Source: a virus
Lineage: Duplodnaviria > Caudoviricetes
Length of the DNA stretch: 64,000 bases
IMG/VR virus record: IMGVR_UViG_2906976556_000001
Span: 1-64,000 of that record
Direction: 5' to 3' (one strand)
The position numbers and the translations under genes are program-made. Below the pieces are notes generated by a model, which was given only the letters and a program-made list of their open reading frames with translations, did no database searches and had not been told where the DNA came from. Of this stretch, positions 1-50,332 are shown piece after piece (position 1 is the stretch's first letter; each line of letters begins with the position of its first letter).

Positions 1-45
1 CTTCTAATCCCTTGGTCGCAGGTTCGAATCCTGCCGGGGGCACCA
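1..45 (+). tRNA. 3' portion of tRNA-Arg(TCT), truncated by the window edge; probable prophage att core
   Basis: CT-TCT-AA anticodon loop, T-arm GCAGGTTCGAATCCTGC, ends in CACCA; prophage genes follow directly. Confidence 0.85.
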
Positions 46-41913: not shown

Positions 41914-42522
41914 TCATGCAACTTTCGCGCAGCCAATCGCCGCCGCCAGCAACTCAAACGACGTCGGCGGCCAAACCGTCCCACACGAGAGGCAGCGAGC
42001 TTCCTGGGCCGTCACCAACAGCGCTGGCTGCTTCACGTTCTCGTCGAGGTCATCCCGACGCCACACCGTCTTCGCCTCGCACTGTGGGCAGGCGCCAGTC
42101 ACCTCCACCTCGGAGACGCCGTCGAGCAGGTTATTGATTGTCTTCACCCAGCCGCGAATGGTCAGCGCCCACTTCTGTAGCTCGGACGAGTCCTGCGGCC
42201 TCCAACCCATATGGGGAAGATCTGCAAGGAGAGAAAGGGTATGGCCTCGGTGAGGCGCCGCCCACTCCGCTACGGTTCGCTCGATACGCTCCACCAGATC
42301 GAGACCGGCAATCCACACCGAAGGCCGGGATCGGAACGCTGACTTGCCTTCGCCTGACTGTTGTCCGTGCAGAGCAGTCTTCAGTTGCACGTACAGGTTC
42401 GGCGCCGTGTACACCTGCCCGTCAGCATCTCGCATCGTTTGGACCTTGATGAGGTCATGGATGGCGTCGTCGAGTGCCGTGATGGCGGCTGGCAGGTATT
42501 CAGCATCGGTAGTAACGCTCAT
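41914..42522 (-). CDS. Zn-ribbon protein, putative late-transcription regulator
   Basis: CPQC...CLSCG..W; sits at the early/late boundary. Confidence 0.6.
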   Translation of the reverse strand: MSVTTDAEYLPAAITALDDAIHDLIKVQTMRDADGQVYTAPNLYVQLKTALHGQQSGEGKSAFRSRPSVWIAGLDLVERIERTVAEWAAPHRGHTLSLLADLPHMGWRPQDSSELQKWALTIRGWVKTINNLLDGVSEVEVTGACPQCEAKTVWRRDDLDENVKQPALLVTAQEARCLSCGTVWPPTSFELLAAAIGCAKVA

Positions 42523-43003
42523 ATTCTCGACTTCCATTGTGGGACAACGGTATACGGAATCAATTGTACCGGACATGCACCAAAAACTCGAGCTGTCAAC
42601 ACCCCTGGAAAGATAACGATTTACAGCAGGTCAACCCGTCAGTCCCTCTCCCACCCGAAAGCATCCGCAGGCAACCCGTCCGTCTCCACCGGCGACACGA
42701 ACACCTCAGTACGGGTAACAGTCACCGTCTTCCGCACCCCACGAATCTCCGGAAACGTGTACTTCTCCCAACCGGAATCAGGATTCAACGCCTTGAGGTC
42801 GGCCACAGCCTGCTTCAAATCACGGTTACCACGCAGATGACTTTCGATGGCGGCCTCACGCGTCGGTCCCGACGCATAGCGATCACTGTCATCGGTGACT
42901 GTCGCCCACTCCACCCGCGTCTGCGTGAACTCGTGAGTCGATCCCGACAGGATCGCGGGGATGAGGTCATCAGACGCCTTCGGGCCTTTCACGCGCCCAT
43001 CTT

Positions 43004-43687: not shown

Positions 43688-44587
43688 TCAGAAGTCTCCT
43701 GGCGCGACCTGGAAGCAGGGCAGGCCAATCTCCCGCCACATTTGCACGACCTGCGTTCGATCATCGAATACGGCCTGCACGTTGTACCGGTGGCGCACAT
43801 GCTTGTCGAACAGTTCAGCCTTCACGACGGCGTCCTTGCGTCCGTCACCGTTCTGGCGCATCAGCAGCTCGTCGAAGCGGACGTCGAAGCGATGAAGCCA
43901 CGCCGCCGTGTCTGCTAGGCAGGAATCTTCGCGGCCGGACATCACGATGATCTTGCCGTCGAGCCGATCGATAACCTCTGCGACGTGAACCACCAGCGTG
44001 TCCTCGGAGACGCGCGTGTAGTCGTACGGTCCACGGTCGCCCATCGAAGCGAGGGTGCCGTCGACATCGACGATGTAGGCGCGCGGCGAAGACAGGTCCG
44101 GCACATACGGTGCTGGCTTCACCGCGACGTCAGGCCGCACCTCGATCGGCTGCCACGACTTGATCGGGAACCGTGCCGCCATATCGCGGATCGCCGTCTC
44201 GCCGACGAACCGGCCACCCTCGACTGCACGGTGCTTGTCGCGGCGTAGGCATTCCTCCAACGGCGTCGGGACATCCTGCGTCACGAAGTCGGCGCCCACC
44301 TGTTTCGCCAGAGACGCGATCTCGCGGGCGTACTTCATCCGCAGATTCGTATCATCGAACACCACCGAGACGCCATTCTCGAGCAGATGTTTCGCCGCGG
44401 TGTGCTGGGCGATCGTGACGGCCCGCTCTTGTAGATAGGTGCCAACACCATCGACAGCGAACAGGGACGCACGGAGATCGTCTCGGTTCAGCCGGGCACG
44501 CCTCTCCGGGTCCTCGGCGACCCAGGTGCGAGCCCACGTCGTCTTACCGGATCCTGGGTAGCCGCGCGTCGCGACGACGACGGTCAT
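43688..44587 (-). CDS. Polynucleotide 5'-kinase/3'-phosphatase (T4 PseT-like)
   Basis: P-loop GYPGSGKT, RDDLR, DDTN; HAD motifs DVDGT, SGR, FDDR. Confidence 0.92.
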   Translation of the reverse strand: MTVVVATRGYPGSGKTTWARTWVAEDPERRARLNRDDLRASLFAVDGVGTYLQERAVTIAQHTAAKHLLENGVSVVFDDTNLRMKYAREIASLAKQVGADFVTQDVPTPLEECLRRDKHRAVEGGRFVGETAIRDMAARFPIKSWQPIEVRPDVAVKPAPYVPDLSSPRAYIVDVDGTLASMGDRGPYDYTRVSEDTLVVHVAEVIDRLDGKIIVMSGREDSCLADTAAWLHRFDVRFDELLMRQNGDGRKDAVVKAELFDKHVRHRYNVQAVFDDRTQVVQMWREIGLPCFQVAPGDF

Positions 44588-45672
44588 GCGACTGCCTCCG
44601 AATGGTCGAGCATGAACGTGTCACCGCGGGGTTTCAGGGTCTTCCAGATGGCGGTGTTCATGCGGTCCTGCTGGCCGTCGAGGAGGCAGAACAGTAGCGG
44701 CGTGTTGTCGTGACGTTTCGCGATCTCGGCGAATTCTCGGCGGTCACCAGATGGCGCGATTTCGCGGATCGAATCGAATGCGGCGCGCGCAGTGTCCGCT
44801 ATGGCCCGGTGCTGCTTCTGCAGCGTGAGCCAAGTCTTGGTGAGCCAGTCGTGGAATTCGTCGGGCAGGTCGAGAACGAGATCCTCGAACGGCTTCCCGG
44901 CGGCGGCATGCTCCCACACCGTCTTCTCGGACATGCCCGTCACGATCTTGTGGAGCTGCACGTACCGTTCCAGCTTCAGCTTGACCATGGTGCCGTCTTG
45001 GAAGTGGACGACGAAGCCCTCGGCGTTGTCTCGGACTGGCGCTCGAAGTGCCTCCCCGAGAGTGGCGTACGGGAACCGTTCCGCTTTCCGGCCAGGCCAC
45101 TCGTAGCCGGCATGCGGGGACCCGACGTGCCCGGTCTCGTTGTCCACCACCGCGAGCAGGACGAGTCCCTCGAAGTCGTAGTCGACGACGATTCGGTTCG
45201 CCCTGTAGATGATCTCGAACAGGTACGTGAACCCCGGCTCCGGGCTCCACACATCGAAGTAGAGGTCCGTGAAGTGTTGGGTCGCCCACTTCGCTTGATC
45301 TGATTCGAACGAGCCGCGGGTCGCGATCGCATACCCGCCCTGGCCTGTCGGGTACAGGATGCCGAGTGAGCCGTCGAGTTTGTCAGTCACTTCCACCGGT
45401 GCCGACAGGTCGAGCTGCGGCAGCCGGTCGCCGTCGTGCTCGGCGTCGTTAAAGAACTTCGGGAACGGCCGGGCGATAACTTCACCGGTGTCGTCGACGA
45501 TGAGTCCGCGGCACTGCAGAGTGACGTCGTCCCACGTGCGCGAGTAGGCGGCGAGCTCCGAGTAGTTGTAGATCCGGTACGGCAACGTCGGATGCGCGCG
45601 GACTTTGACCATGCCCTCATCGATCCGGGCCTGCAGCGCAACCGGACTCATAAGCTGGTCGATGTTCACCAT
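44584..45672 (-). CDS. RNA ligase (T4 Rnl1-like)
   Basis: CRGLI, RPFPKFFN, motif I KLDGSL, FEII, EGFVV, VKLK. Confidence 0.92.
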   Translation of the reverse strand: MVNIDQLMSPVALQARIDEGMVKVRAHPTLPYRIYNYSELAAYSRTWDDVTLQCRGLIVDDTGEVIARPFPKFFNDAEHDGDRLPQLDLSAPVEVTDKLDGSLGILYPTGQGGYAIATRGSFESDQAKWATQHFTDLYFDVWSPEPGFTYLFEIIYRANRIVVDYDFEGLVLLAVVDNETGHVGSPHAGYEWPGRKAERFPYATLGEALRAPVRDNAEGFVVHFQDGTMVKLKLERYVQLHKIVTGMSEKTVWEHAAAGKPFEDLVLDLPDEFHDWLTKTWLTLQKQHRAIADTARAAFDSIREIAPSGDRREFAEIAKRHDNTPLLFCLLDGQQDRMNTAIWKTLKPRGDTFMLDHSEAVA

Positions 45673-46415
45673 GCGATCTCCCCGAGGTAGTGGCGGCGGA
45701 CGCGCTGCAGGAAGTCCTCGACCGGCGCCTCGTCCGGCTGGTCGGGCAGCGGGGACGTGGCAGCGTTGAACTTGATCTGGTATTCGGTGATGAGGGTGCG
45801 GGCGGCGAGCGCTTCGGGATCGTTGACTATCGACCGACCGAAGTCGAAGAAGGGCTGCGGATCCGGCACCTTGATCGGCAGCACGCCGGTCGTGTACAGC
45901 TCGTAGCCCTGCCACAGCAGCCTCATCGTGTGCCGAGCGTGCTTCTCGCGGCGGGTCTCGAGCGACCCTTGGAAGCGTCCACGGTGCACGAGACGGTGGA
46001 ACTGGCTGGTGGCGTAACCGAAGAACGCGTCGCGGACTCGTTTCCTCGTGAGGAAGTTCGATCGCAGCGAGATCAGTTCCTCACCGAACTGGTTCTGTCG
46101 GAGGTAGTGGGGGAGCCACAGGATCTCGGACGCGGTCGGGTTGCACGACAACATGAGGCCGAGCGCCTTGCCGAGTTCGTGGAACGTGGTGTCCGGGTCC
46201 TTCCGCTTCCACGTCGCCCGTTCACGCTGCGGCGGATGCAGTCCCAGCAGCACTTCGGTCGGTTCGACGTAGATGCCGGAGTAGTCGATGTCTGAAGTTG
46301 GCGTGTTCAGCCCGTAGGCGACCGACCCGACGACGCCTTCCAGAAGGATGTGCGAGGTGCGGGTTTCGGGGTTGAACTTCGGGTGTGGTCGAACGAGTTT
46401 CGCGGTGTCGCTCAT
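45666..46415 (-). CDS. Pol-beta-superfamily nucleotidyltransferase (RlaP-like)
   Basis: GSVAYGL..PTSDIDYSG, NPT..E.LW, KHARH..RLL. Confidence 0.85.
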   Translation of the reverse strand: MSDTAKLVRPHPKFNPETRTSHILLEGVVGSVAYGLNTPTSDIDYSGIYVEPTEVLLGLHPPQRERATWKRKDPDTTFHELGKALGLMLSCNPTASEILWLPHYLRQNQFGEELISLRSNFLTRKRVRDAFFGYATSQFHRLVHRGRFQGSLETRREKHARHTMRLLWQGYELYTTGVLPIKVPDPQPFFDFGRSIVNDPEALAARTLITEYQIKFNAATSPLPDQPDEAPVEDFLQRVRRHYLGEIAW

Positions 46416-47008
46416 CGGATCCCCTGTCGGTTTGGCTGGTTCCGGTTTCGGCGTGGGCGACGTGAACGGCCCGGGTTGTTCGCCCACATCGGTGGCGTTA
46501 ACGAAGGGCTGGGCATGCGGACCCATGCATGCCCCGATTCGCGGGGCGTGTCTTCGCCTTCCATCCGTGTCGTGGTGACACCGGTGTCGGGATCTGTCGA
46601 ATGCTCGGCGACGACACCGATATGGACTCGGCCGTTCTCGTCCTGGTAGCCGATGCGGTCGCCGCGCTGCAGTCTCGGCGCCTCAGGGCGAGGGGCATCA
46701 ACGAGGACGATGTCACGGAAGATCGCCGCTATGGACTCCGCATGCTCGGCGAGACGACGGAGCGCCGACGTGACGCCGTCCCCGACGGTGATAGTCCACC
46801 CTGGTGTTCCGCTGCCCCATGGAACGAACACGTTGTCGGTGAGCGGGCCCTCGGAAGCCGAGCCGGGGCAGCCTGTCTGCGGCAGGCCGTGCCACGACCT
46901 GCCGCAGCGGCACACTGGGGCGCGGCCCCCGAAGACTGGTTCGCCGCCCGCCATCTGCTCGTCCACGAGGCGATCGATGTCGTCGAGGACGTCCTGCTCT
47001 GGGTTCAT
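46412..47008 (-). CDS. Hypothetical Cys/His protein inside the RNA-repair operon
   Basis: CRCGRSWHGLP...CPGS; overlaps both neighbours. Confidence 0.65.
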   Translation of the reverse strand: MNPEQDVLDDIDRLVDEQMAGGEPVFGGRAPVCRCGRSWHGLPQTGCPGSASEGPLTDNVFVPWGSGTPGWTITVGDGVTSALRRLAEHAESIAAIFRDIVLVDAPRPEAPRLQRGDRIGYQDENGRVHIGVVAEHSTDPDTGVTTTRMEGEDTPRESGHAWVRMPSPSLTPPMWANNPGRSRRPRRNRNQPNRQGIR

Positions 47009-48579
47009 CAGAACGGCCAGTCGGTGTCGGTTCCGTTCTCCAGGAGGGGGATCTGCCGGAACGCTTGATCCGTCAGTCCGCCGAAAACGTGACGGTTGGG
47101 TCCGGATGCGGTGTGGCCATGCCGGTATCCGGCCAGGTTGTACGTGAACAGGGGGACGTGATCGGGGATGACGTCGCCCGGGTCTCCGTAGTAGCCGCCG
47201 CCCTGTTCGTCCGTGAGGATGACGACACGGTTGTGACTGGAGAACGCAGCCTTCGTCGCCCCGGCGGTCGCTGTACCGCCGCCGAGGAAGTAGCCGTCCG
47301 TCCGCCACCGCTTCAACCCGGACAGGAGGGATTCACCGAGGACCTTCGGGAAGATCGCGGCCCGGTTCGAGTAGGACACGACGGTGGCGTCGTCGCAACG
47401 CCGCGCCAACGCCAACCCGAACAGGGTGGCGGCGTCCCACCGCATCAGGGTGCCGTCCTTCGAGAACCCGGAATGCATCGAGCTCGACGTGTCGACCATG
47501 ATCAACGTCCGACCCGGCAGGGAGGGGATGTTGGCGACCGATGCGTCGAGTGCCTTCTCCAGCGGGTACGACCAGCGCAGCGACGGGGCCGCGTTGTACG
47601 CGGACAGGAAGCGGAGCGGGAACTGGCGAGACCTCGCGACCTGAAGCGGTTCGGACAGGAACGCGGCGACGACCTCCGCCACCTCATCGGAAACGCCAGC
47701 CTGGTCGAAGTTGCGGAGATTCCGGAGCAGGGCCATGTAGCCCATCGACGGGATGATCGCCTCCCACAGCTCCTTCGTCCACGGCCCGTTCACCAACGAC
47801 GGAATCGACTCCCACGTCGCGCCTGCGTCTGCGAGCGCAGGCGCAAGCGCACCCGTCTCGGCGAGATGGGTGACCTGGGTGGGGTTGAGCTTGCGAAGCG
47901 AGGCATTGCGGCGCAGGGTCTCGAGCTCGCCGGGGATCTCCAATCCGTCGACGCCGATCCGCTGCCCGATGACGTAATGGAACAGCGCCTGCTGCCACTC
48001 GGCCTTCGGTGTCGGCCGGGTCAGCCGGATGACGTCAGCGAACCGCACACCATGAGACGCGGTGTCGTACTTGAGGACCGAGCGTTCCGTGTACAGCCGA
48101 ACGACTGCATCAGCGACGCCGCGCTTCACCGGCTTCGGCAGCTTCCGGCCGTACCGTGAATGCCAGTAGGCGATGAACTCGCCTGGCTCGTCCGGCCGCT
48201 GCAGGACCGCGTTGACGATGCCGCGGGAACCGTCAAGGCCCGCGTCGAGGCGGGCCTTCACTGCTTCGGCAGCGAGAACGAGAGACGCAGTCCGCATGTT
48301 CGCCTCGGAACGCAGCCAGGTCGCGAACCGTGTCAACCAGTCGAAGTCATCGACAGCGACCGCCTTGACCAGTGAGGTGAAGCGGGAGTCGCGGTCGCGG
48401 GCGTTCTCGTAGAACGTGTCCTCGCCAACCATGTTCGCCACCGCCAGCAGGAACAGTTCCGACTTAGTGTCACGGGTGAACCCGGGTGCGCCTTCGAACG
48501 TGCGGCCGGACGGGGAGGTCTCCGACCGGATCGGGCCTCTACCCGCCGGACGAGCCAGGGCGGTGTTGAACTTCGACAT
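47008..48579 (-). CDS. Ro60/TROVE-domain RNA-binding protein (Rsr ortholog)
   Basis: TROVE motifs ELFLLAV, NMRT, KPVKRGVADA, YMALLRNLRN; vWA DTSSSM and ILTDEQ. Confidence 0.93.
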   Translation of the reverse strand: MSKFNTALARPAGRGPIRSETSPSGRTFEGAPGFTRDTKSELFLLAVANMVGEDTFYENARDRDSRFTSLVKAVAVDDFDWLTRFATWLRSEANMRTASLVLAAEAVKARLDAGLDGSRGIVNAVLQRPDEPGEFIAYWHSRYGRKLPKPVKRGVADAVVRLYTERSVLKYDTASHGVRFADVIRLTRPTPKAEWQQALFHYVIGQRIGVDGLEIPGELETLRRNASLRKLNPTQVTHLAETGALAPALADAGATWESIPSLVNGPWTKELWEAIIPSMGYMALLRNLRNFDQAGVSDEVAEVVAAFLSEPLQVARSRQFPLRFLSAYNAAPSLRWSYPLEKALDASVANIPSLPGRTLIMVDTSSSMHSGFSKDGTLMRWDAATLFGLALARRCDDATVVSYSNRAAIFPKVLGESLLSGLKRWRTDGYFLGGGTATAGATKAAFSSHNRVVILTDEQGGGYYGDPGDVIPDHVPLFTYNLAGYRHGHTASGPNRHVFGGLTDQAFRQIPLLENGTDTDWPF

Positions 48580-48623
48580 GGGGCCTCTCTCAACATCGTT
48601 GGAGGGGAGCCGAACCATGCGTA

Positions 48624-48758
48624 GCAGTGCCGAGAAACGGAAGGGGGCCACGCTGATTAAATTTCTCGCTCTACCAACTGAGCTACCTGAGCTGCACGCA
48701 CAGGGCGGGGGTCGAACCCGCGACACAGAAGGATGCGCAGTCGGCACACCGGCACTGC
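48624..48758 (-). ncRNA. Y RNA, YrlA-like tRNA mimic
   Basis: 9-bp terminal stem GCAGTGCCG/CGGCACTGC; T-arm GCGGGTTCGACCCCCGC lies 5' of D-arm TAGCTCAGTTGGTAGAGC; adjacent to Ro60. Confidence 0.85.
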
Positions 48759-48773
48759 CACTATGGAATTAGG

Positions 48774-48877
48774 CCCCCGAGGAATAGTGCGTAACCGTCT
48801 GCGGGCTTGAACCGCAACAACGAACCACAGTCCGTTGCCTGAACCAGAAGTAACGGTCCGACGCGACACACCGGGAG
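48774..48877 (-). ncRNA. Y-RNA-like RNA with T-arm only
   Basis: Terminal stem; shared GGTGTG and GTTACTTCT motifs; GCGGTTCAAGCCCGC T-arm. Confidence 0.7.
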
Positions 48878-48893: not shown

Positions 48894-49036
48894 GCGTGGC
48901 TGAGGAAAAGTCGATGGTGGTAACGAAGTGTTCTAGGCCGCTGAACTACGGGACTCGTTGAGCCTCGGTGGGATTCGAACCCACGTCTCTCTCTTAGCAG
49001 GAGAAGTAACCACATGCATCTGCACACCAGCCACGC
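48894..49036 (-). ncRNA. Y RNA, circularly permuted tRNA mimic with anticodon-like arm
   Basis: Stem GCGTGGCTG/CAGCCACGC; TTCTC-CTGCTAA-GAGAG; T-arm GTGGGTTCGAATCCCAC; closed acceptor; D-arm TAGTTCAGCGGCCTAGAAC. Confidence 0.85.
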
Positions 49037-49049
49037 TGTTCAGTTGTAA

Positions 49050-49122
49050 TGCTTCAGAGAAAGCCGTGGGGCACGGGATAATTCACCCAAAGAAGTACCG
49101 CGACCCGATCACACCTGAAGCA
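49050..49122 (-). ncRNA. Minimal Y-RNA-like RNA
   Basis: Stem TGCTTCAG/CTGAAGCA; GGTGTG, GGTACTTCT and TTTCT motifs; no tRNA arms. Confidence 0.7.
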
Positions 49123-49172: not shown

Positions 49173-49961
49173 TCAGAATCGGCGGTCGATCTCGGCGGCC
49201 GCCCAGTCCGTCCACGTCAGCGTCGAGCCGGGGAATCGCTCGGTCGCATACAGGGTGTGTTCGGTGGTGCGCGGTGTCCGGGCCGGGTTGGGGAATGCGT
49301 ATCCGGCGAGGCCGATGAGTGCTTCGGTGTAGCGGCCGGGGCGGATGCGGGCGAGCCAGTCAGCTTTGCGGAGGGCGTCGACGGACTTGAACGGGTCGGC
49401 GGCTTTGCCTTCGAGTGCTGCGAAGGGGGAGAGTCCGCGGGCGATGTGTCGTGCGGGGGAGTATTCGTCGGCGTTGCCGATGATGTCGTGCGGGTTGCAG
49501 ACTTCGAGGTTCAACATTCCGGCGGGGAGTGGGCCGTGGGATGAGTGAAGGCCAGAGCCTTTCAGCCCGGAGACGGCGGAGTCGCCCCTGTTTCGGGACG
49601 GGTTTGCGATGCCGACGTGGAAAGCGATCTCCATCCGCGACCCGTCACGGTTCCGGTACTTGCCGGAGGCGACGCCTTCGAGGAACCGCATCGCGGCAAT
49701 GCCACCGAGACTGTACGACACGAGTCCGACAACATCGTTCGTCGATTGGACGAAGCGGACGAGGTCGGCGACGGCCTGGGTGACGGAGTCGTCGAGGGAC
49801 AGTGGGAGTTCCCCGGCCGCGCGGATGTTCCCGATCGATGCCGAATATGAGATGTCGTAAAGGTCCCACTTGTTTTGGAAGTGGCGGGCGACGTGGCCGG
49901 TCATGGCGCCGTTGAGTGCACCGCGCTGGTTGGCGGTGCCGCGGATCGTTACGAGGATCAT
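49173..49961 (-). CDS. Lysin B-like alpha/beta hydrolase
   Basis: IRGT, YSAS, SYSLGG nucleophile elbow, ANPSR, DII, H..Y. Confidence 0.75.
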   Translation of the reverse strand: MILVTIRGTANQRGALNGAMTGHVARHFQNKWDLYDISYSASIGNIRAAGELPLSLDDSVTQAVADLVRFVQSTNDVVGLVSYSLGGIAAMRFLEGVASGKYRNRDGSRMEIAFHVGIANPSRNRGDSAVSGLKGSGLHSSHGPLPAGMLNLEVCNPHDIIGNADEYSPARHIARGLSPFAALEGKAADPFKSVDALRKADWLARIRPGRYTEALIGLAGYAFPNPARTPRTTEHTLYATERFPGSTLTWTDWAAAEIDRRF

Positions 49962-50332
49962 GGGGTCTCCAGTTCGGTGATCTCCAAGGTGATGCGCGGG
50001 TTCGCGCGGTCGAGTTCGACGCGGCAGGACTCGGTGCGGACGAACACGTAGTGGTCGTCGGGCCAGACACCGGCGTCTTTGAAGCCGTCGATCGTCGCTT
50101 TCAGGAGAGGAAAGAGGCTGCCAGCGTCGCGGCGGATGGCGTTGGGCGCCCACCACGTGATGAGGACGTCGGAGCGGGTGTGCTCGCGGATCTTCAGGGA
50201 TTTCGCGAGGGCCCACATTTCGCGGCGGACGGTCTTGGTGGTGCGCGAGTTGTGGCGGCCGGTGGACCGGGCGGACTCGTTGGATGTTTTCGGTGGCCGC
50301 AGGTAGGGGAGTGTGACGAGGGTGGCGGTCAC
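49958..50332 (-). CDS. RusA-like Holliday junction resolvase
   Basis: RRDAG...LKATIDG..DAGVWPDD. Confidence 0.8.
   Translation of the reverse strand: MTATLVTLPYLRPPKTSNESARSTGRHNSRTTKTVRREMWALAKSLKIREHTRSDVLITWWAPNAIRRDAGSLFPLLKATIDGFKDAGVWPDDHYVFVRTESCRVELDRANPRITLEITELETP

Follow-up and report, generated by a model that had tools for sequence, protein, structure and literature searches.

Does the stem-loop that precedes the T arm in a phage-encoded Y RNA replicate the anticodon arm of a tRNA, or is it a long variable arm, as the published reading of this element has it? The RNA that raises the question, module A, is 143 nt long (positions 48894-49036, minus strand) and lies in a 64,000-nt stretch of Caudoviricetes DNA, positions 1 to 64,000 of IMG/VR record IMGVR_UViG_2906976556_000001, which we call the window. 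Module A is a YrlA-class Y RNA and thus belongs to a known family. Its hairpin is not a new element either, having been described under another name ("V") and with another interpretation. Judging from the sequences of module A and its relatives, we consider it probable that the V hairpin is a replica of an anticodon arm and not a class II variable arm. What the sequence comparison appears to add to the known V element is the anticodon-like loop statistics and the spacing shared by 92 of the 179 modules compared. Should the fourth stem-loop indeed be such a replica, YrlA would be a mimic of a whole tRNA and not of three arms, its candidate partners would widen to enzymes that read anticodon loops, Y RNAs would be tied more closely to tRNA damage and repair, and a tandem-tRNA origin of YrlA would be supported.

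Anatomy and family membership of module A

Module A, recognized by its sequence, its fold, and matches to the Rfam YrlA model and to our own covariance model R1, is bounded by the two strands of its outer closing stem. Its two ends, GCGUGGCUG (49036-49028) and CAGCCACGC (48902-48894), form 9 bp. The long terminal stem is bulged, and its 5' strand (49014-49036), the presumed Rsr-binding region, leads into an inner closing helix whose 5' strand GUGGUUAC (49006-49013) pairs with GUUACCAC (48924-48917) with one U-U mismatch and includes the conserved YUAY motif as UUAC (49009-49006). Abutting this helix with a spacer of 0 nt is the hairpin UUCUC-CUGCUAA-GAGAG, with a 5-bp stem and a 7-nt loop, which corresponds to the V stem-loop of Chen et al. 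2014 and sits on the minus strand at 48989-49005, exactly where the original prediction had placed it. There follow a linker AGAC (48985-48988), equivalent to variable-loop positions 44-48, whose last C is able to form a Levitt pair with G15 of the D loop; a T arm GUGGG-UUCGAAU-CCCAC (48968-48984), found in the sequence and by both Rfam and R1; a loop-closed acceptor mimic CGAGGCU-CAACG-AGUCCCG (48949-48967) of seven positions with one A-C mismatch and the loop CAACG; U8 A9 (48947-48948); a D arm GUUC-AGCGGCCUA-GAAC (48930-48946) in which A14, G15, G18 G19, and A21 are all present; and a 5-nt linker ACUUC (48925-48929) between the D stem and the 3' strand of the closing helix. The nucleotides that make tertiary contacts in tRNA, namely U8, A14, G15/C48, G18 G19, and the T loop UUCGAAU, are therefore represented. 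The prediction of four tRNA arms in permuted order is borne out by the minus-strand sequence from 49036 to 48894.

The 5-bp stem of the hairpin is seen in both the minimum-free-energy (MFE) and the centroid folds of module A. The fold z-score of the whole RNA is -1.70, and 12 of 200 shuffles reach an equally good fold; folding energy alone is thus weak evidence here. A lone hairpin of 5 bp and 7 nt could easily be a chance product, and it is conservation that supplies the support. A scan for promoters and terminators returned a terminator-like hairpin upstream of module A (49076-49064, minus strand) and none after it, and the ends of the RNA are accordingly defined by the closing stem only. 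In the DNA comparison with named phages there was no close named relative of this phage, the single short match being 80 nt of Gordonia phage BearBQ over the T arm.

Module A is assigned to the YrlA type as the first of three Y RNA modules directly upstream of the phage rsr. It ends at 48894, 315 nt from the rsr start at 48579 and on the same strand, well within the 4 kb allowed between a YrlA and a Ro60 ortholog. Its stem-loops follow the order T, acceptor, D that is required of a YrlA, the YUAY motif stands before the V region, and the tertiary-contact nucleotides are in place. The Rfam YrlA model (RF02553), whose consensus is of the Salmonella type and has no hairpin, matches only the T-acceptor-D core of module A (24.4 bits, E 0.03 in 2.5 kb), aligning 48987-48930 with model positions 28-81; the Rfam gathering score of 69 bits is reached neither by module A nor by the third module, module C, at 47 bits. 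R1 scores 80.2 bits on module A (49015-48918), which is itself one of the 13 seeds of that model. A sul1-RNA match of 22.8 bits and other sub-threshold Rfam rows fall within coding sequence and were treated as chance. The exact GNCGAAN0-1G motif of Chen et al. 2014, a proposed Rsr contact, is not found in module A, whose 5' strand reads GGCUGGUGUGCAGAUG; most relatives carry GGUGCGCAG at the same place and a few GACGAAGCG, and the absence is probably a lineage variant.

The likeness to described YrlA RNAs extends to the locus and to the fourth stem-loop. The YrlA RNAs of Salmonella Typhimurium and Mycobacterium smegmatis are likewise encoded on the same strand just upstream of rsr, and they have their ends paired into a stem, the T arm, loop-closed acceptor, and D arm in that order, the YUAY motif, and the nucleotides for tRNA-like tertiary contacts. 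Module A is close in size to the M. smegmatis RNA (~143 nt versus ~147 nt) and shares with it a fourth stem-loop upstream of the T arm, whereas the crystallized Salmonella YrlA has neither the self-contained 5-bp/7-nt hairpin nor the 5-nt spacer between D stem and closing stem. The premise that described YrlA RNAs are without this hairpin does not hold: in many YrlAs, according to Chen et al. 2014 (PMC4201824), the T arm is preceded by a further stem-loop, the fourth, named "V" (variable arm), the complement of the published M. smegmatis YrlA-5' probe includes the loop CUUCUAA, and Wang et al. 2018 (bioRxiv 312249) report long variable loops in YrlAs, which they take as class II-like. Of the interpretation in the original prediction, then, the permuted four-arm mimic, the loop pattern among homologs, and the repair genes stand, and the novelty of the hairpin relative to described YrlAs falls away. 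A more distant parallel is Deinococcus radiodurans Yrn1, in which Chen et al. 2014 describe, beside a hairpin that resembles a T arm, another that they regard as a potential "anticodon arm" and whose stem has 5 bp, as in module A; Yrn1 differs in its 6-nt loop, in its arm order, and in having no full D arm.

Nor is it safe to call module A nonchargeable, as had been proposed, since RNase P cleaves M. smegmatis YrlA, which then gains CCA (Chen et al. 2014), and since most modules, module A included, have an acceptor stem of 7 positions (about 7-8). A bolder corollary of RNase P cleavage, CCA addition, and acceptors of 7-8 bp, tied to the bait reading below and as doubtful as that reading, is that the processed RNA, in two pieces, would be a Ro-tethered split tRNA with an anticodon arm as well as a CCA end.

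Conservation of the hairpin and composition of its loop

The search with R1 gave 263 matches in 121 rsr loci and the window, of which 179 nonidentical modules from actinobacteria and phages were kept. A hairpin was counted when at least 4 of 5 pairs formed in a 5-7-5 arrangement that started right after YUAY and ended 3-5 nt before the T stem. By this fixed-register test 92 of the 179 modules carry the hairpin, compared with 12.4 on average and 22 at most among 180 shuffled segments; R1, built from 13 hairpin-bearing seeds, favors the recovery of such modules, and the sequences are related by descent, so the counts are not independent events. The remaining 87 modules fail the strict test, and the hairpin is clearly absent from some paralog classes, including that of module C, which indicates that a YrlA can dispense with it. 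MFE folding of the segment from YUAY to the T stem had been tried as a classifier and was rejected, as it returned a 7-nt loop in only 35 of 180 segments; RNAfold adds pairs inside 7-nt loops and their flanks, and real anticodon arms would fare alike. The fixed-register pair count with its shuffle control was adopted instead.

The hairpin stem covaries, with 94 double-change cells against 26.7 in shuffles and 0 of 500 shuffles as high, in rows that had already been chosen for at least 4 of 5 pairs. Spacing is conserved as well. The linker from the hairpin to the T stem measures 4 nt in 50 modules, 5 nt in 36, and 3 nt in 7 (n = 93), or 4-5 nt in 86 of the 92 hairpin modules as counted on the 93; AGAC is its most frequent form (23/93), and its first base is A in 51 of 92. 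The gap between closing stem and hairpin is 0 nt in 59 of 91 modules, the D stem is followed by 4-7 unpaired nucleotides in 52 of 91, and a purine stands after the D stem in 88 of 92. This purine and the A that opens the linker would be indirect signs of a hairpin stacked coaxially under the D stem, with nucleotide 26 as the bridge between them.

The original prediction held that mimicry would show among homologs as a conserved U33 and A37 around a variable triplet, and this is the pattern that the 92 loops display. Position 32 is a pyrimidine in 82 of them, position 33 is U in 85, position 37 is a purine in 87, and position 38 is A in 83, while positions 34-36 are nearly random, with ~0.1 bit each and 34 different triplets. 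The dinucleotides at 36-37 (UA 31, CA 20, GG 15, AA 12) are distributed much as in 115 real tRNAs from the same loci (UA 44, CA 26, GG 22, AA 11), and 55 of the 92 loops are identical to some real tRNA loop from these loci; the loop CUGCUAA of module A is that of a real tRNA-Ser(GCU) in one of them (L014). In a single paralog class (n = 32), positions 34-36 and the 31-39 pair vary most, and there is next to no variation in the T arm. Where a locus has at least two hairpin modules, their triplets differ in 13 of 14 cases. Statistically, the hairpin loops are identical with anticodon loops. A loop with a purely structural role would likewise keep its U-turn and leave its middle positions free, and the variable triplet alone is no proof that it is read.

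In its 5-bp stem, its 7-nt loop, and its frequencies of Y32, U33, R37, and A38, the YrlA hairpin resembles a tRNA anticodon arm, and the 4-5-nt linker, often AGGUC or AGAC, resembles a class I variable loop. Module A has the whole set: a 5-bp stem, a 7-nt loop, Y32, U33, R37, and a variable loop of 4-5 nt followed by the T stem. Two features set the hairpin apart from a tRNA anticodon arm, in that its 5' strand joins the Rsr-binding stem and not the D arm and its stem opens with a family-specific UUC. Independent software also takes the hairpin for an anticodon arm. ARAGORN called 25 of the 92 hairpin modules tRNAs, 24 of them with the loop triplet as anticodon, and tRNA genes are annotated at such modules in five GenBank phage records (VanLee, GiJojo, Alone3, Xanthomonas 10KY502B, and CcrColossus). 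Where YrlA modules are thus listed as tRNA genes, by finders or in phage records, counts of phage tRNAs would be inflated. Of the 33 partial R1 matches, 31 are real tRNAs whose anticodon arm is aligned to the hairpin, with the same anticodon.

The loop statistics, the spacing, the ARAGORN calls, and the GenBank annotations are the grounds on which we favor an anticodon-arm replica. In the model that follows from it, we infer the stacking of the hairpin helix on the D stem, the binding of Rsr, and every functional step. Module A is the first of three Y RNA modules transcribed towards rsr. Its paired ends form the long bulged stem that, from what holds for the family, is expected to dock on the Rsr ring. 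Its middle reads as a complete but permuted class I cloverleaf composed of anticodon-arm replica, 4-nt variable loop, T arm, closed acceptor, U8-A9, and D arm. The break in the cloverleaf comes after the D arm and before the anticodon-arm replica, at the point where the Rsr-binding stem leaves the junction. The Rsr particle would in this way gain a handle with the full shape of a tRNA, down to a U-turn loop that follows the rules of anticodon loops, and proteins that read such loops could be recruited by the RNA on Rsr or compete for it. Candidate partners would be modification enzymes, anticodon nucleases, and the adjoining Pnkp, Rnl1, and RlaP repair enzymes.

Alternative readings and the RNA repair genes

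A class II variable arm has a short stem, a loop of 3-5 nt, and 1-2 unpaired nucleotides on each side. Taken as such an arm, the hairpin would leave the closing stem as the equivalent of the anticodon stem, and the RNA would have no anticodon arm at all, being opened at the anticodon loop. This published reading, which we consider unlikely, agrees with topology, as the place of a variable arm in the junction is after the closing stem and before the T arm, where the hairpin sits; class II tRNAs (tRNA-Leu, -Ser, and -Tyr) likewise carry a hairpin just ahead of the T arm, behind the helix next to the D arm. Chen et al. 2014 both named the stem-loop V and oriented it as a variable arm, and Wang et al. 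2018 compared the crystal structure of S. Typhimurium YrlA, the only solved YrlA, with a class II tRNA by superposition; in that structure the stem leading to the Rsr site stacks as an anticodon stem 1 nt after the D stem. Some Micromonospora-type modules in our set have that same geometry: a linker of 1 nt separates the D stem from the helix that comes next, and a self-contained hairpin is missing. The hairpin modules depart from it, with a gap of 4-7 nt and not 1 nt between D stem and closing stem, 4-5 nt after the hairpin and none before it, a 5-bp stem, and a 7-nt U-turn-type loop that has U at its second position and a composition that agrees with anticodon loops at each position. Ten real class II variable arms taken from these loci have stems of 2-5 bp with 1-3 nt behind them, and the loop is 4 nt long in 8 of the 10. 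Module A, with 5 bp, a 7-nt loop, 4 nt after it, and 0 nt before it, does not conform to that type.

Downstream of rsr and in the same orientation are a gene for an RlaP-family nucleotidyltransferase (45666-46526, minus strand; Pfam PF10127, 1.7e-25; phrog_388), one for a T4 Rnl1-type RNA ligase (44584-45915, minus strand; Pfam RNA_lig_T4_1, 1e-13; phrog_562, 1.3e-71), and one for a polynucleotide kinase-phosphatase, Pnkp (43688-44587, minus strand; Pfam HAD_PNKP, 1.2e-49, and AAA_33, 5.5e-23). The true start of the ligase gene is probably downstream of the listed GTG, as homology starts near residue 85. The kinase and ligase that the original prediction took to be co-encoded with the RNA are thus present, together with RlaP, just downstream of rsr. 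Known YrlA systems have RtcB/RtcA as their repair genes, in contrast to the Pnkp/Rnl1/RlaP set near module A. Phage T4 uses Pnkp and Rnl1 to repair tRNA-Lys that has been cut by PrrC. As in T4, a Pnkp and an Rnl1-type ligase are encoded here by one phage, and unlike in T4 they share a gene block with RlaP, Rsr, and Y RNAs.

The RNA could then be a putative bait for nucleases, a decoy bound to Rsr that is cut in place of tRNA and resealed by the phage Pnkp, Rnl1, and RlaP. We regard this as doubtful. It would fit the presence of a T4-type set for anticodon-loop repair 0.5-5 kb downstream in the same orientation, and RlaP is described as adding 1-2 nt to the 5' half of a tRNA cut in the anticodon loop (preprint PMC12776372). 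The difference of triplets within loci would suit a decoy, and so would the position of the triplet as the most variable part of a conserved module, as an arms race predicts, although a lack of constraint explains that variability equally. A ligase or nucleotidyltransferase gene is also found near rsr in phages JustBecause, Rabbitrun, and Neville. Linkage between the cassette and the hairpin is nevertheless not general: in flanks of up to 3 kb around 41 viral and 80 bacterial rsr loci, homologs of this RlaP occurred at a single viral locus and at no bacterial one, and homologs of Rnl1 and PNKP at none of the 121, within a distance beyond which such genes may lie. The Pnkp/Rnl1/RlaP cassette is beside rsr here and almost nowhere else and is not a conserved rsr neighbor. 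The same hairpin in chromosomal actinobacterial loci, moreover, argues against a counterdefense specific to phages. In a broader form, to which we give as little credence, the V stem-loop would be a faithful anticodon stem-loop in much of the YrlA family, and Rsr-YrlA particles would constitute a panel of anticodon-loop baits, with fast-changing triplets tethered to the Ro60 ring, acting as a putative Ro60-based sensor or sponge of tRNA damage. Such baits would be read by host tRNA-cleaving defense or toxin nucleases and by t6A/m1G37 modification enzymes, and in this phage they would be coupled to Pnkp, Rnl1, and RlaP.

It is improbable that the hairpin is an evolutionary relic, the leftover anticodon arm of an upstream tRNA in a tandem tRNA transcript from which YrlA arose, with no present function. 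The tandem-tRNA origin model is quoted in Wang et al. 2018, and such tRNA pairs had to be filtered out in Chen et al. 2014; our full-length R1 matches include 13 to tandem tRNAs, and the hairpin, linker, and T arm can be aligned to real tRNAs. A relic would decay, as has apparently happened in the paralog classes without a hairpin, but here compensatory changes keep the 5-bp stem, and U33, R37, A38, and the loop length are kept across Rsr proteins that are only 42-69% identical while positions 34-36 are randomized. The pattern is kept in Xanthomonas and Caulobacter phages as well. The UUC with which the stem opens is specific to YrlA and not common to tRNAs, which argues that the hairpins descend from one another and are not repeated recent captures.

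Bacterial tRNA-Ser requires a long variable arm. That module A is a genuine decoding tRNA-Ser(GCU), as the calling of homologous modules as tRNA-Ser(gct), tRNA-Arg(tct/cct), tRNA-Thr, or tRNA-Gln by ARAGORN or in GenBank might suggest, was rejected as having next to no probability, because its sole D arm comes after the T arm, out of canonical order, its acceptor is a closed hairpin with no free 3' end, its linker is 4 nt with no long variable arm, ARAGORN finds 0 tRNA genes in the whole window, and the Rfam tRNA model has no match on module A.

Neighboring Y RNA modules and rsr

The gene that the three Y RNA modules precede, rsr (47008-48579, minus strand), encodes a 523-residue Ro60 ortholog with TROVE and vWA domains; the Pfam TROVE match is strong (3.2e-17), and the VWA_2 match is weak (21.4 bits, cut-off 27). 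Its relatives number 33 viral and 80 bacterial proteins.

Module B (48774-48877, minus strand, ends approximate) is YrlB-like by its motifs only, with a fold z-score of -0.38. The GUUAC-UUC hallmark is present at 48854-48847, and the hairpin UGCGG-UUCAAGC-CCGCA at 48816-48800 resembles a T arm; the module lacks a D arm and is matched by neither R1 nor Rfam. Module C (48616-48766, minus strand, ends approximate) is, by Rfam, R1, and fold, a YrlA that has a long closing helix but lacks the anticodon-like hairpin. Rfam YrlA matches it at 48741-48644 with an E value of 8.9e-09, R1 scores 48.3 bits on 48749-48656, and its fold z-score is -2.20.

Anatomy of module A

Module A (49036-48894, minus strand; 143 nt) is a YrlA-type Y RNA, a family defined by successive T, acceptor-like and D stem-loops beside the Ro60 ortholog gene rsr (Chen et al. 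2014, PMC4201824). All coordinates and letters of the original prediction for this feature proved correct. Read on the minus strand, the module begins and ends with an outer stem (GCGUGGCUG paired with CAGCCACGC), followed by an internal-loop region and an inner helix (GUGGUUAC paired with GUUACCAC, one U-U mismatch). The hairpin UUCUC-CUGCUAA-GAGAG (49005-48989, minus strand) abuts the inner helix with zero spacer and is joined by the linker AGAC to the T arm, GUGGG-UUCGAAU-CCCAC. An acceptor-like stem of seven positions (one A-C mismatch, 5-nt closing loop), the dinucleotide UA, the D arm (GUUC-AGCGGCCUA-GAAC) and 5 unpaired nt precede the return strands of the closing helices. The hairpin stem occurs in both the MFE and centroid folds; for the RNA as a whole, the folding energy gives a z-score of just -1.70. 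ARAGORN found no tRNA in the window. A tRNA 3' part cut by the window start (1-42, plus strand) matches positions 31-71 of the Rfam tRNA model with 29.4 bits.

The original prediction assumed that described YrlAs lack this hairpin. This premise was mistaken, since the YrlA literature already knows a stem-loop 5' of the T arm as the variable arm "V," and the long variable loops of other YrlAs have been compared to class II tRNAs (Wang et al. 2018, bioRxiv 312249). The complement of the published M. smegmatis YrlA-5' probe contains the loop CUUCUAA (Chen et al. 2014, PMC4201824). Full-text literature searches, and passages of the papers they retrieved, yielded no statement that V is anticodon-like. 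The window RNA adds one member to a family already known; what may be new is the reinterpretation of V, together with the tRNA mis-annotations described below.

Conservation of the hairpin and its loop

For comparison, 33 viral rsr loci, 9 from named actinophages and 80 actinobacterial loci were fetched and searched with a covariance model, R1, built from 13 modules, all hairpin bearing. From the 263 matches we dropped first 38 partial ones, then 13 full-length ones whose D arm lay within an ARAGORN tRNA (tandem tRNAs), another 13 that formed less than 4 of the 6 acceptor pairs (a group that includes YrlA-like modules, with the hairpin present or absent), 9 real tRNAs recognized by hand from a D-arm 3' end ahead of the hairpin, 10 identical duplicates, and 1 more real tRNA-Glu, which gave a final set of 179 modules from 103 loci.

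The segment from the conserved YUAY motif to the T stem measures 21 or 22 nt in 109/180 modules. If a 5-7-5 register is fixed at its first nucleotide, a placement that hinges on the YUAY boundary set by R1, at least 4 of 5 pairs form in 92/179 modules (shuffled segments: mean, 12.4; maximum, 22), a proportion that is neither a lower nor an upper bound for the YrlA family as a whole. Several modules failing this test carry 3- to 4-bp versions of the same hairpin. With tRNA numbering applied to the 92 loops, position 32 is a pyrimidine in 82, position 33 is U in 85, position 37 is a purine in 87 and position 38 is A in 83, and positions 34 to 36 are nearly random (34 triplets), counts that represent non-independent events because the sequences are related. 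The predicted combination of conserved U33 and position 37 with a variable triplet is thereby borne out. The 36-37 dinucleotides of these modules (UA, 31; CA, 20; GG, 15; AA, 12) can be set beside those of 115 real tRNAs encoded in these loci (UA, 44; CA, 26; GG, 22; AA, 11), and G36 is followed by G37 in 15/17 cases. In one class of 32 close relatives, the T arm hardly varies, and positions 34 to 36 and the 31-39 pair are the most variable. All four Watson-Crick types are seen at stem pairs 30-40 and 31-39, in rows preselected for pairing. The same module architecture occurs in Xanthomonas and Caulobacter phages.

Anticodon arm or variable arm

We consider the hairpin to be probably a replica of an anticodon arm, a reading favored by its spacing, by other programs and by alignment of the YrlA model. 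The linker 3' of the hairpin measures 4 to 5 nt (often AGGUC or AGAC), like the variable loop of class I tRNAs; the 5' spacer is 0 nt in 59/91 modules, and in 52/91 the D stem and the closing stem are 4 to 7 unpaired nt apart. Class II tRNAs of the same loci (n = 10) differ in having variable arms of 2 to 5 bp, with a 4-nt loop in 8/10. ARAGORN called 25/92 modules tRNAs, with the loop triplet as the anticodon in 24, and when R1 positions 11 to 49 were locally aligned to real tRNAs, the hairpin fell on the true anticodon arm in 31/33 matches.

The published reading, a variable arm, appears unlikely to us. It draws support from the tRNA-like domain of Salmonella YrlA, the sole solved YrlA, in which the variable loop is short and the closing stem, directed toward the Rsr site, serves as the anticodon stem (Wang et al. 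2018, bioRxiv 312249), and some of our modules have a Salmonella-like arrangement in place of the hairpin. However, the hairpin spacing, the ARAGORN and GenBank calls and the R1 alignment favor an anticodon arm, in a comparison where the known three-dimensional structure is of the Salmonella type and hairpin-bearing YrlAs are known here from sequence. A second module type is found in Micromonospora-type loci (including L049, L053, L060, L065 and L071), with GGAUAC-UUCUAAUCUAU-GGGUC 5' of the T arm and A-AUAGG directly after the D stem. These blocks make possible a 5-bp helix in trans with a 1-nt linker and thus a Salmonella-like topology, which would position an unpaired CUUCUAA stretch where the anticodon loop sits.

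Comparison with R1 coordinates showed that modules of this kind are entered in five GenBank records under the names tRNA-Arg, -Ser, -Thr or -Gln: Gordonia phage VanLee gene 125 (L036:3704-3775), Streptomyces phages GiJojo gene 29 (L035:3769-3843) and Alone3 gene 36 (L040:1274-1347), Xanthomonas phage 10KY502B (L124:1792-1859) and Caulobacter phage CcrColossus (L125:1221-1288). Labeled Arg-tct, Arg-cct, Ser-gct, Thr and Gln, each lies just upstream of a Ro-like gene and overlaps a full-length YrlA-model match whose D arm is 3' of the T arm; they look like mis-annotated Y RNAs. In the 13 full-length matches to tandem tRNA genes, the T arm comes from one tRNA and the D arm from its successor. This pattern agrees with the proposed tandem-tRNA origin of YrlA and is a pitfall for YrlA scans of phage tRNA arrays.

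Function, repair cassette and genomic surroundings

Anatomy and conservation are what has been established for the hairpin. It may round off the tRNA disguise of YrlA, which would allow proteins that read anticodon loops to engage the Rsr-bound RNA. The original prediction went further, proposing a decoy that is cut in the hairpin and resealed by phage enzymes. This is attractive in the window phage, where rsr is followed on its 3' side by an ORF of unassigned function and then by genes for an RlaP nucleotidyltransferase, an RNA ligase of the T4 Rnl1 type and a polynucleotide kinase-phosphatase; these three enzymes form an anticodon-loop repair set, in which RlaP acts on the halves of cut tRNAs, filling in nucleotides (preprint PMC12776372). 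Nevertheless, we find it quite improbable: the cassette is no conserved neighbor of rsr (locus flanks of up to 3 kb), the same hairpin also occurs on bacterial chromosomes, and a free triplet is equally expected of an unconstrained U-turn loop.

The neighboring features listed here are on the minus strand. An endolysin-like ORF (49173-50216; phrog_102, 4.8e-22) and a terminator-like hairpin after it (49064-49076) lie upstream of module A. Between module A and rsr (48579-47008; its product matches TROVE, and vWA weakly and under the Pfam cut-off) sit two further Y-RNA-like modules: YrlB-like module B (~48877-48774), with a GUUAC-UUC hallmark and a T-arm-like hairpin and without a D arm, and module C (~48766-48616; Rfam YrlA 47 bits, E 8.9e-09), without an anticodon-like hairpin. 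Downstream of the repair block is a DUF7341 and DUF7340 protein (41914-42576; 4.8e-28 and 5.7e-22). The virus record is 72.6 kb long with terminal repeats. The nearest relatives of its Rsr are from an IMG/VR contig (69% identity) and Nocardia sp. (68%); those of named Streptomyces and Gordonia phages share 46 to 48% identity. The nearest bacterial locus, in Nocardia sp. CA-290969, is present twice, on a 39-kb and a 7.9-Mb contig, with identical Y-RNA modules, which suggests a mobile element related to the window phage, for instance a prophage.
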